A stretch of DNA of 201 nucleotides from Escherichia coli (lineage in GTDB: Bacteria > Pseudomonadota > Gammaproteobacteria > Enterobacterales > Enterobacteriaceae), in assembly GCF_003334385.1 (NCBI RefSeq), contig NZ_QOWN01000234.1; one strand, written 5' to 3'. The position numbers and the translations under genes are program-made. This document shows positions 1-201 of this stretch, piece after piece (position 1 is the stretch's first letter; each line of letters starts with the position of its first letter). The notes below the pieces were generated by a model. That model had not been told where the DNA came from. It saw only the letters and a list, made by a program, of their open reading frames with translations, and searched no databases.

Positions 1-53
1 GACACCGCCCTTTCACGGCGGTAACAGGGGTTCGAATCCCCTAGGGGACGCCA
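1..53 (+). tRNA. gltT: tRNA-Glu (anticodon UUC), partial: 5' end lies before the window; 3' end with encoded CCA at 51-53. Spacer tRNA of an rRNA operon (gltT/gltU/gltV/gltW family; the exact copy cannot be assigned).
   Basis: Seen in sequence: anticodon stem CCGCC (5-9) pairs with GGCGG (17-21) around the 7-nt loop CTTTCAC (10-16), placing TTC at 12-14. T-stem AGGGG (26-30) pairs with CCCCT (38-42) around the loop TTCGAAT (31-37), which carries the conserved T-loop motif. The 3' acceptor strand AGGGGAC is 43-49, discriminator G at 50, CCA at 51-53. The whole stretch matches my recollection of E. coli tRNA-Glu from about its position 24 onward. Gene symbol is a family placeholder, since the four rrn-linked copies are identical in the tRNA itself. 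Confidence 0.95.
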
Positions 54-86
54 CTTGCTGGTTTGTGAGTGAAAGTCACCTGCCTT

Positions 87-126
87 AATATCTCAAAACT
101 CATCTTCGGGTGATGTTTGAGATATT
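87..126 (+). promoter_or_regulatory. boxB-like stem-loop of the spacer antitermination region: long imperfect hairpin capped by a C(UUCG)G tetraloop.
   Basis: Seen in sequence: the outer stem AATATCTCAAA (87-97) pairs with TTTGAGATATT (116-126), 11 bp. A 2x2 internal mismatch follows (A98/C99 opposite T114/G115). The inner stem TCAT C (100-104) pairs with G GTGA (109-113), including one G-U pair (103:110). The loop is TTCG (105-108) closed by C104:G109. Its position directly upstream of boxA matches the boxB-boxA arrangement of rrn antitermination regions. The functional assignment is inference. Confidence 0.65.
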
Positions 127-141
127 TGCTCTTTAAAAATC
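127..141 (+). promoter_or_regulatory. boxA antitermination element (spacer copy) of an rRNA operon; RNA binding site for NusB/NusE(S10) in the rrn antitermination complex.
   Basis: Seen in sequence: TGCTCTTTAAAAATC at 127-141, which closely matches the rrn boxA core (leader form TGCTCTTTAACAATTTA) and the spacer boxA as I recall it. It sits right after a hairpin and inside an rRNA-operon spacer, as expected. Confidence 0.8.
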
Positions 142-167
142 TGGATCAAGCTGAAAATTGAAACACT

Positions 168-185
168 GAACAACGAAAGTTGTTC
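168..185 (+). other. Short hairpin with a GNRA (GAAA) tetraloop in the pre-23S spacer; probable structural or processing element of the rRNA precursor.
   Basis: Seen in sequence: GAACAAC (168-174) pairs with GTTGTTC (179-185), 7 perfect Watson-Crick bp, with loop GAAA (175-178). A T167:G186 wobble could extend it. Function is inferred. Confidence 0.55.
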
Positions 186-201
186 GTGAGTCTCTCAAAT
201 T

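Follow-up and report, generated by a model that had tools for sequence, protein, structure and literature searches.

Assignment of a 201-nt stretch of Escherichia coli DNA to the tRNA-Glu-type 16S-23S spacer of an rRNA operon

rRNA (rrn) operons carry boxA copies upstream of both the 16S and the 23S gene, and boxA is the assembly site of the Nus factors, S4 and SuhB. The rrn boxA consensus is UGCUCUUUA, and boxB followed by boxA is the order typical of rrn operons (PMC6614797). For the binding of NusB/NusE to boxA and its support of antitermination and 23S synthesis, the cited literature is Berg 1989 and Pfeiffer & Hartmann 1997. A Rho-dependent stop between tRNA-Glu and 23S has been described in vitro, which would explain why the spacer has a boxA. 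The rRNA ends themselves are brought together in leader-trailer helices, which are RNase III substrates; the 23S helix is given as 27 bp in the literature, and for 16S a model has been proposed in which polymerase-tethered boxA helps the leader and the trailer meet. The stretch in front of 23S has also been described as StyR-44, an RNA of ∼109 nt located upstream of 23S in all rrn operons, which was cloned from S. Typhi and occurs in all seven operons (PMC2943607).

Here, we compared these systems with one 201-nt stretch of E. coli DNA, which is called the window below. The content of the window is already known; it is textbook rrn anatomy, with no hidden gene or defence system.

Identity and layout of the window

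The window is almost certainly part of the 16S-23S internal transcribed spacer of a tRNA-Glu-type E. coli rRNA operon. In K-12 MG1655, all 201 bases are matched exactly by rrnC (locus L004, positions 209–409) and by rrnE (L006); the two other Glu-type spacers of this strain, rrnB and rrnG, have 4 and 16 mismatches, respectively. Of 5426 complete E. coli genomes, 5425 gave a Megablast match to the window. A single place spans 80% or more of it in 5394 genomes, and the identity of the best place was at least 99% in 4986 records. The median number of places per genome is 7, counting partial matches to the Ile/Ala spacers.

Identical copies are located between annotated 16S and 23S genes in K-12 rrnC and rrnE as well as in strain 120899, and the annotated order around them is 16S, tRNA-Glu, 23S and 5S. 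In strain 120899, the identical copy belongs to rrnG, which lies between clpB and kgtP. By annotation, 16S occupies positions 3851–5392, tRNA-Glu 5478–5553, the window 5501–5701, 23S 5747–8650 and 5S 8745–8860; the window thus begins after 108 nt from the 16S end, and 23S starts 46 nt downstream of it. The original prediction had recognized an rrn spacer with tRNA-Glu from the sequence, and it expected near-identical BLASTN matches in several rrn operons per genome, with 16S upstream and 23S downstream. Both the identification and the expected flanks were borne out, and no evidence that we obtained contradicts the assignment. The window is transcribed within the long rRNA precursor.

The features of the window are as follows:

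1–53, plus strand: 3′ part of tRNA-Glu(UUC), tRNA nucleotides 24–76 (Rfam RF00005, ARAGORN on the full locus, fold, RefSeq gltU/gltV)
4–22, plus strand: anticodon arm of tRNA-Glu, with loop CUUUCAC at 10–16 and anticodon UUC at 12–14
26–53, plus strand: T arm (26–42), 3′ strand of the acceptor (43–49), discriminator G50 and encoded CCA (51–53) of tRNA-Glu
54–59, plus strand: short 3′ trailer of the tRNA, CUUGCU, unpaired in all folds
60–84, plus strand: hairpin H1, pairs 60–62/82–84 and 65–68/76–79, loop GUGAAAG at 69–75 (fold)
87–126, plus strand: hairpin H2, boxB-like, directly 5′ of boxA, pairs 87–97/116–126 and 100–104/109–113, loop UUCG
127–139, plus strand: spacer boxA UGCUCUUUAAAAA, a NusB/NusE loading site according to the literature (match to the rrn boxA consensus)
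131–201, plus strand: match to Rfam StyR-44 (RF01830), 81.5 bits (gathering score 54), covering model positions 1–71 of 107, 3′ end cut
140–159, plus strand: predicted 5′ strand of the outermost leader-trailer helix segment, pairing with +34 to +53 after the 23S 3′ end (cofold)
164–188, plus strand: hairpin H3, predicted side arm interrupting the leader-trailer helix (fold; part of the StyR-44 consensus structure in Rfam)
191–201, plus strand: predicted 5′ strand of the middle leader-trailer helix segment, 191–197 (UCUCUCA) pairing with trailer positions +26 to +32 (cofold)

The tRNA-Glu 3′ portion, the encoded CCA, boxA and the flanking hairpins named by the original prediction are thus all present, at sensible coordinates. 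Its statement that essentially every base is accounted for is also correct and can be refined at two points: the predicted 5′ strand of an extended 23S leader-trailer helix, and not hairpins alone, makes up the 3′ third, and the first hairpin bears an invariant loop.

The tRNA part fits the cloverleaf of tRNA-Glu(UUC), with anticodon UUC and an encoded CCA. The Rfam tRNA model RF00005 matches positions 1–50 with 34.6 bits (gathering score 29), its 5′ end being cut. ARAGORN called no tRNA in the 201-nt window, because the tRNA gene is truncated there; on the full rrnC locus, it found a complete tRNA-Glu with anticodon ttc at L004:186–261. As the window occupies positions 209–409 of the same locus, window positions 1–53 are therefore tRNA nucleotides 24–76. 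tRNA-Glu is released from the rRNA precursor by RNases, and the trailer at 54–59 is probably where the endonuclease releasing the tRNA 3′ end enters, as in general E. coli tRNA 3′ maturation.

Hairpins H1 and H2 and the invariant loop of H1

To collect related spacers, we ran a pattern scan over one genome per species, in which the 3′ half of tRNA-Glu had to be followed by boxA. The scan returned at least 117 stretches, which represent numerous genera of Enterobacterales along with a few Aeromonadales; it is not exhaustive, since Escherichia coli, an exact fit to the pattern, is absent from its output. Spacers of the enterobacterial tRNA-Glu type were also seen at L096 and L124, in records titled Chryseobacterium mucoviscidosis (a 249-nt contig) and Oxalobacter (a MAG), which are probably due to contamination or binning error.

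Covariation of the hairpins was scored on an alignment of 49 distinct Enterobacterales spacers. For H1 and H2 together, 93.4% of the cells hold standard pairs, compared to 26–44% when the partner was slid, and 19 of the 23 pairs show changes on both sides; no shuffle equalled the observed covariation. Taken separately, both-side changes occur in 6 of 7 pairs of H1 and in 13 of 16 pairs of H2, and 96–97% of the H2 cells are paired. H2 is an inverted repeat, with a folding energy of −16.3 kcal/mol (z = −5.6). In K-12 rrnG, the apical stem of H2 is wholly different yet still complementary. H1 and H2 are real RNA structures.

Different from its stem, the GUGAAAG loop of H1 shows no variation in the 49-spacer alignment. 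All of the Enterobacterales spacers (108 of 108) carry the loop, set in 42 different stem contexts, while the adjoining bases and the stems vary; its invariance is solid. GUGAAAG is also the exact complement of CUUUCAC, the anticodon loop of tRNA-Glu in the same window. H1 could accordingly be read as a mimic of an anticodon arm, whose loop shows the Glu codon GAA and kisses the tRNA-Glu anticodon loop, a reading that we consider unlikely. The kissing contact would be made either inside the precursor (in cis) or with the mature tRNA-Glu (in trans), and it would affect the release, folding or use of the tRNA; we hold this part to be just as doubtful.

Several observations agree with such a contact. 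All seven of the loop-loop pairs are Watson-Crick pairs, with a duplex energy of −6.5 kcal/mol; CUUUCAC occurs a single time in the whole operon transcript, namely in the anticodon loop; and the invariant block of H1, kept unchanged through all of the stem contexts, is just as long as the anticodon loop. However, the match was spotted post hoc, and 4.2% of dinucleotide-preserving spacer shuffles contain the 7-mer. The anticodon loop itself is without any variation, which makes a covariation test impossible. Moreover, nine Aeromonadales spacers share the same tRNA 3′ half and lack GUGAAAG, and the invariant loop could equally be the recognition site of a protein or an RNase. We regard a nuclease or protein recognition site as at least as likely as the kissing contact. 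No literature on a spacer loop complementary to an anticodon loop was found among the papers searched, few of which were older subscription papers.

The would-be parallel in tRNA-Ala spacers did not hold either. The E. coli Ala spacer first seemed to be a second case, with UGCAAA facing UUUGCA; when folded, its loop is the tetraloop GCAA. Across 32 metagenomic spacers of the Ala type, the loop at this place is a GNRA tetraloop (GCAA, GAAA or GCGA), and in the closest relatives of the E. coli Ala spacer (L142 and L161), the tRNA-Ala anticodon loop is still UUUGCAC despite the change of the tetraloop. By eye, we saw no complement of the tRNA-Ile anticodon loop in the spacer. A rule by which hairpins of the spacer show the codon of the adjacent tRNA was thus rejected, as the tRNA-Ala case failed. 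H1 was also considered as a T-box or another tRNA-sensing leader; no T-box or riboswitch family was found among the Rfam matches up to E = 1, and the window has no terminator-like site. If the kissing contact were true, it would couple the maturation or availability of tRNA-Glu to rRNA processing in Enterobacterales.

BoxA and the strand leading into 23S

The element TGCTCTTTAAAAA at 127–139 matches the rrn boxA consensus; as UGCUCUUUA(A), it has a hairpin upstream and a large rRNA gene downstream. Its 10-mer TGCTCTTTAA occurs in exactly two copies in the whole operon, one in the leader and one in the spacer. Seven aligned E. coli spacer sequences, including that of the Ile/Ala-type rrnH, show no variation from position 125 onward, and thus none in boxA. 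Positions 127–136 are invariant across genera as well, but this 10-mer was required by the scan pattern itself. From the literature, NusB/NusE and the other antitermination factors would load through the boxA RNA onto RNA polymerase before it enters 23S. One E. coli operon, the rrn operon near yrdA in CFT073 (L002:2478–2860), carries a chimeric spacer. It is Glu-type up to window position 151, continues with the last 16 nt of tRNA-Ala (CCGCATAGCTCCACCA) and then with an Ala-type spacer; the chimera therefore contains two boxA copies and is ∼100 nt longer.

The sequence that follows boxA was cofolded with the sequence after 23S. In these cofolds, pairing runs on past the window into the known helix adjoining the 23S ends. 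Both flanks were at hand for 34 operons from many genera; in 29 of them, the 20-nt equivalent of 140–159 forms a strong duplex with the trailer of the same operon (z ≤ −3.6 relative to shuffled trailers). Pairing of the spacer begins no more than 16 nt from the start of boxA in 33 of the 34, and the full cofolds contain a median of 57 intermolecular pairs.

The 5′ strand at 140–159 is variable at two positions only, and both of them covary with the predicted partner. Position 142 forms U-A in 22 operons and C-G in 6; position 146 forms U-A in 12 operons and A-U in 19. The trailers retain a GAGAGA(C) block, and the downstream partner block UUUUCGC/UGCUUAC varies, as judged by eye, together with the trailer. 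The complementarity of the 5′ and 3′ flanks of 23S is thus kept through compensatory change. The E. coli H3 is short, and most other Enterobacteriaceae have a far longer version; the alignments show this length variation, with both arms kept.

Owing to the cofolds and the trailer covariation, we conclude that the chief role of 140–201 is probably that of leader strand in an extended 23S leader-trailer helix, broken by the variable H3. Prediction and covariation together suggest the outer extension of this helix; it may already be drawn in older papers, and we make no claim of novelty for it. Past boxA, the remaining RNA of the window would pair with the sequence after the 23S 3′ end, ∼3 kb downstream. 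The resulting long helix would join both ends of 23S, and its inner part would be the RNase III substrate. The known RNase III cleavage region by the 23S ends lies ∼40 nt past the end of the window. A 23S helix that reaches back to the spacer boxA would fit a polymerase-held boxA helping the ends of the large rRNA to meet. The reach of the helix to boxA, together with the fully conserved 7-base loop beside tRNA-Glu, may be of use to the ribosome biogenesis field.

The same region could instead be an independent small regulatory RNA, StyR-44 (131–201), with a compact fold and targets of its own. The Rfam match is strong and lies above the gathering threshold of RF01830; in addition, StyR-44 has been cloned, and it gives a northern signal in S. 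Typhi and E. coli that is regulated by growth phase (PMC2943607). However, the describing authors themselves cautioned that it may be a metastable processing intermediate (PMC2943607). The local helix of the StyR-44 model, 150–159/198–206, shows zero compensatory change in the 49 spacers, and its central pairs are broken in about a third of them; what this 5′ strand covaries with is the 23S 3′ trailer. We therefore rejected 150–159/198–206, which reaches past the window (198–206 is L004:406–414), as a conserved structure. Promoter-like and terminator-like sites were also lacking in the window. An independent regulator is, in our judgement, improbable, even more so than the kissing contact of H1. 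Because of the covariation results, we favour the processing intermediate, and StyR-44 is most likely a processing by-product; the RNA would be the remnant of the 23S leader strand after processing.

The least probable explanation, which we hardly credit, is that the window comes from a captured tRNA-Glu spacer, or from a pseudo copy of one, on a plasmid, phage or genomic island, outside a working rrn operon: 10 of 37 958 places in complete E. coli genomes are plasmid-borne, and coverage of the window reaches 80% or more in 20 plasmid and 9 phage records, but the window is base for base that of the functional rrnC and rrnE. By record length, the plasmid matches are mostly records of 0.5–5 Mb, some with 4–8 places, or contigs of ∼7–22 kb, which points to mislabelled chromosomes, chromids or assembly fragments and not to mobile capture. 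The full-length phage matches are, by the same measure, unannotated records of ∼1.6–7 kb or bacterial genome contigs, and one match labelled as a Staphylococcus phage is 96% identical to E. coli; these records suggest host or contaminant DNA, or mislabelling. Over the plasmid and phage collections together, the short unannotated records span ∼1.6–9 kb and resemble rrn fragments. Capture by a mobile element was rejected on these plasmid and phage record lengths, and the tRNA-Glu pseudo-copy in a genomic island, which the original prediction had named as the scenario that would overturn it, found no support.

The remaining candidates were dismissed on the window itself. It contains three ORFs, all on the minus strand, the longest of 26 aa; none is credible. 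With no credible ORF and no terminal repeats, a protein-coding gene, toxin, defence system or mobile element was rejected, in agreement with the earlier view that no such system and no small protein is encoded here. Apart from the hairpins, the only repeat in the window is one 10-nt direct pair (61–70/182–191, 90% identity), which we take as chance. Weak Rfam matches to snoRNA, plastid and tymovirus families fall below their gathering thresholds and were likewise dismissed as chance.

Comparison with known rrn and nut systems

The window does not differ from the K-12 rrnC and rrnE spacers of the gltU/gltV region, in which the order is 16S, tRNA-Glu, boxB-like hairpin, boxA and 23S. The rrnB spacer differs from it by the four substitutions given above; most of the 16 substitutions of rrnG are owing to the swapped apical stem of H2.

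Different from the Glu-type spacers, the Ile/Ala-type spacers contain tRNA-Ile plus tRNA-Ala in place of tRNA-Glu, and they are without H1. Like the window, rrnA, rrnD and rrnH of this type carry the sequence of 125–201, which comprises boxA, the predicted leader strand of the 23S helix and H3, and which is identical bar one base; for rrnH, 125–201 is the only stretch in common with the window. The boxB-like hairpin of the Ile/Ala type also differs, as it is capped by a GNRA tetraloop. We observed that the hairpin before boxA in Ala-type spacers (L007:388–426; L125–L163) ends in GCAA, GAAA or GCGA, like lambda boxB-like folds. The H2 loop of Glu-type spacers is UUCG or variable.

Compared to Rfam RF01830, window positions 131–201 correspond to model positions 1–71; the window is without the last 36 positions of the model, whose outer local helix lacks covariation.

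Relative to the boxB-boxA-boxC region of the rrn leader and to lambda nut, the window shares the boxA core UGCUCUUUA, with a hairpin before it. A separate boxC, as in the rrn leader, was not identified in the window. After the boxA core, the spacer copy reads AAAAAUC, whereas the leader copy reads ACAAU. In lambda nut, the order is boxA then boxB, the reverse of that in rrn. As predicted here for 23S, the leader-trailer helix of 16S likewise begins just past the boxA of its leader.
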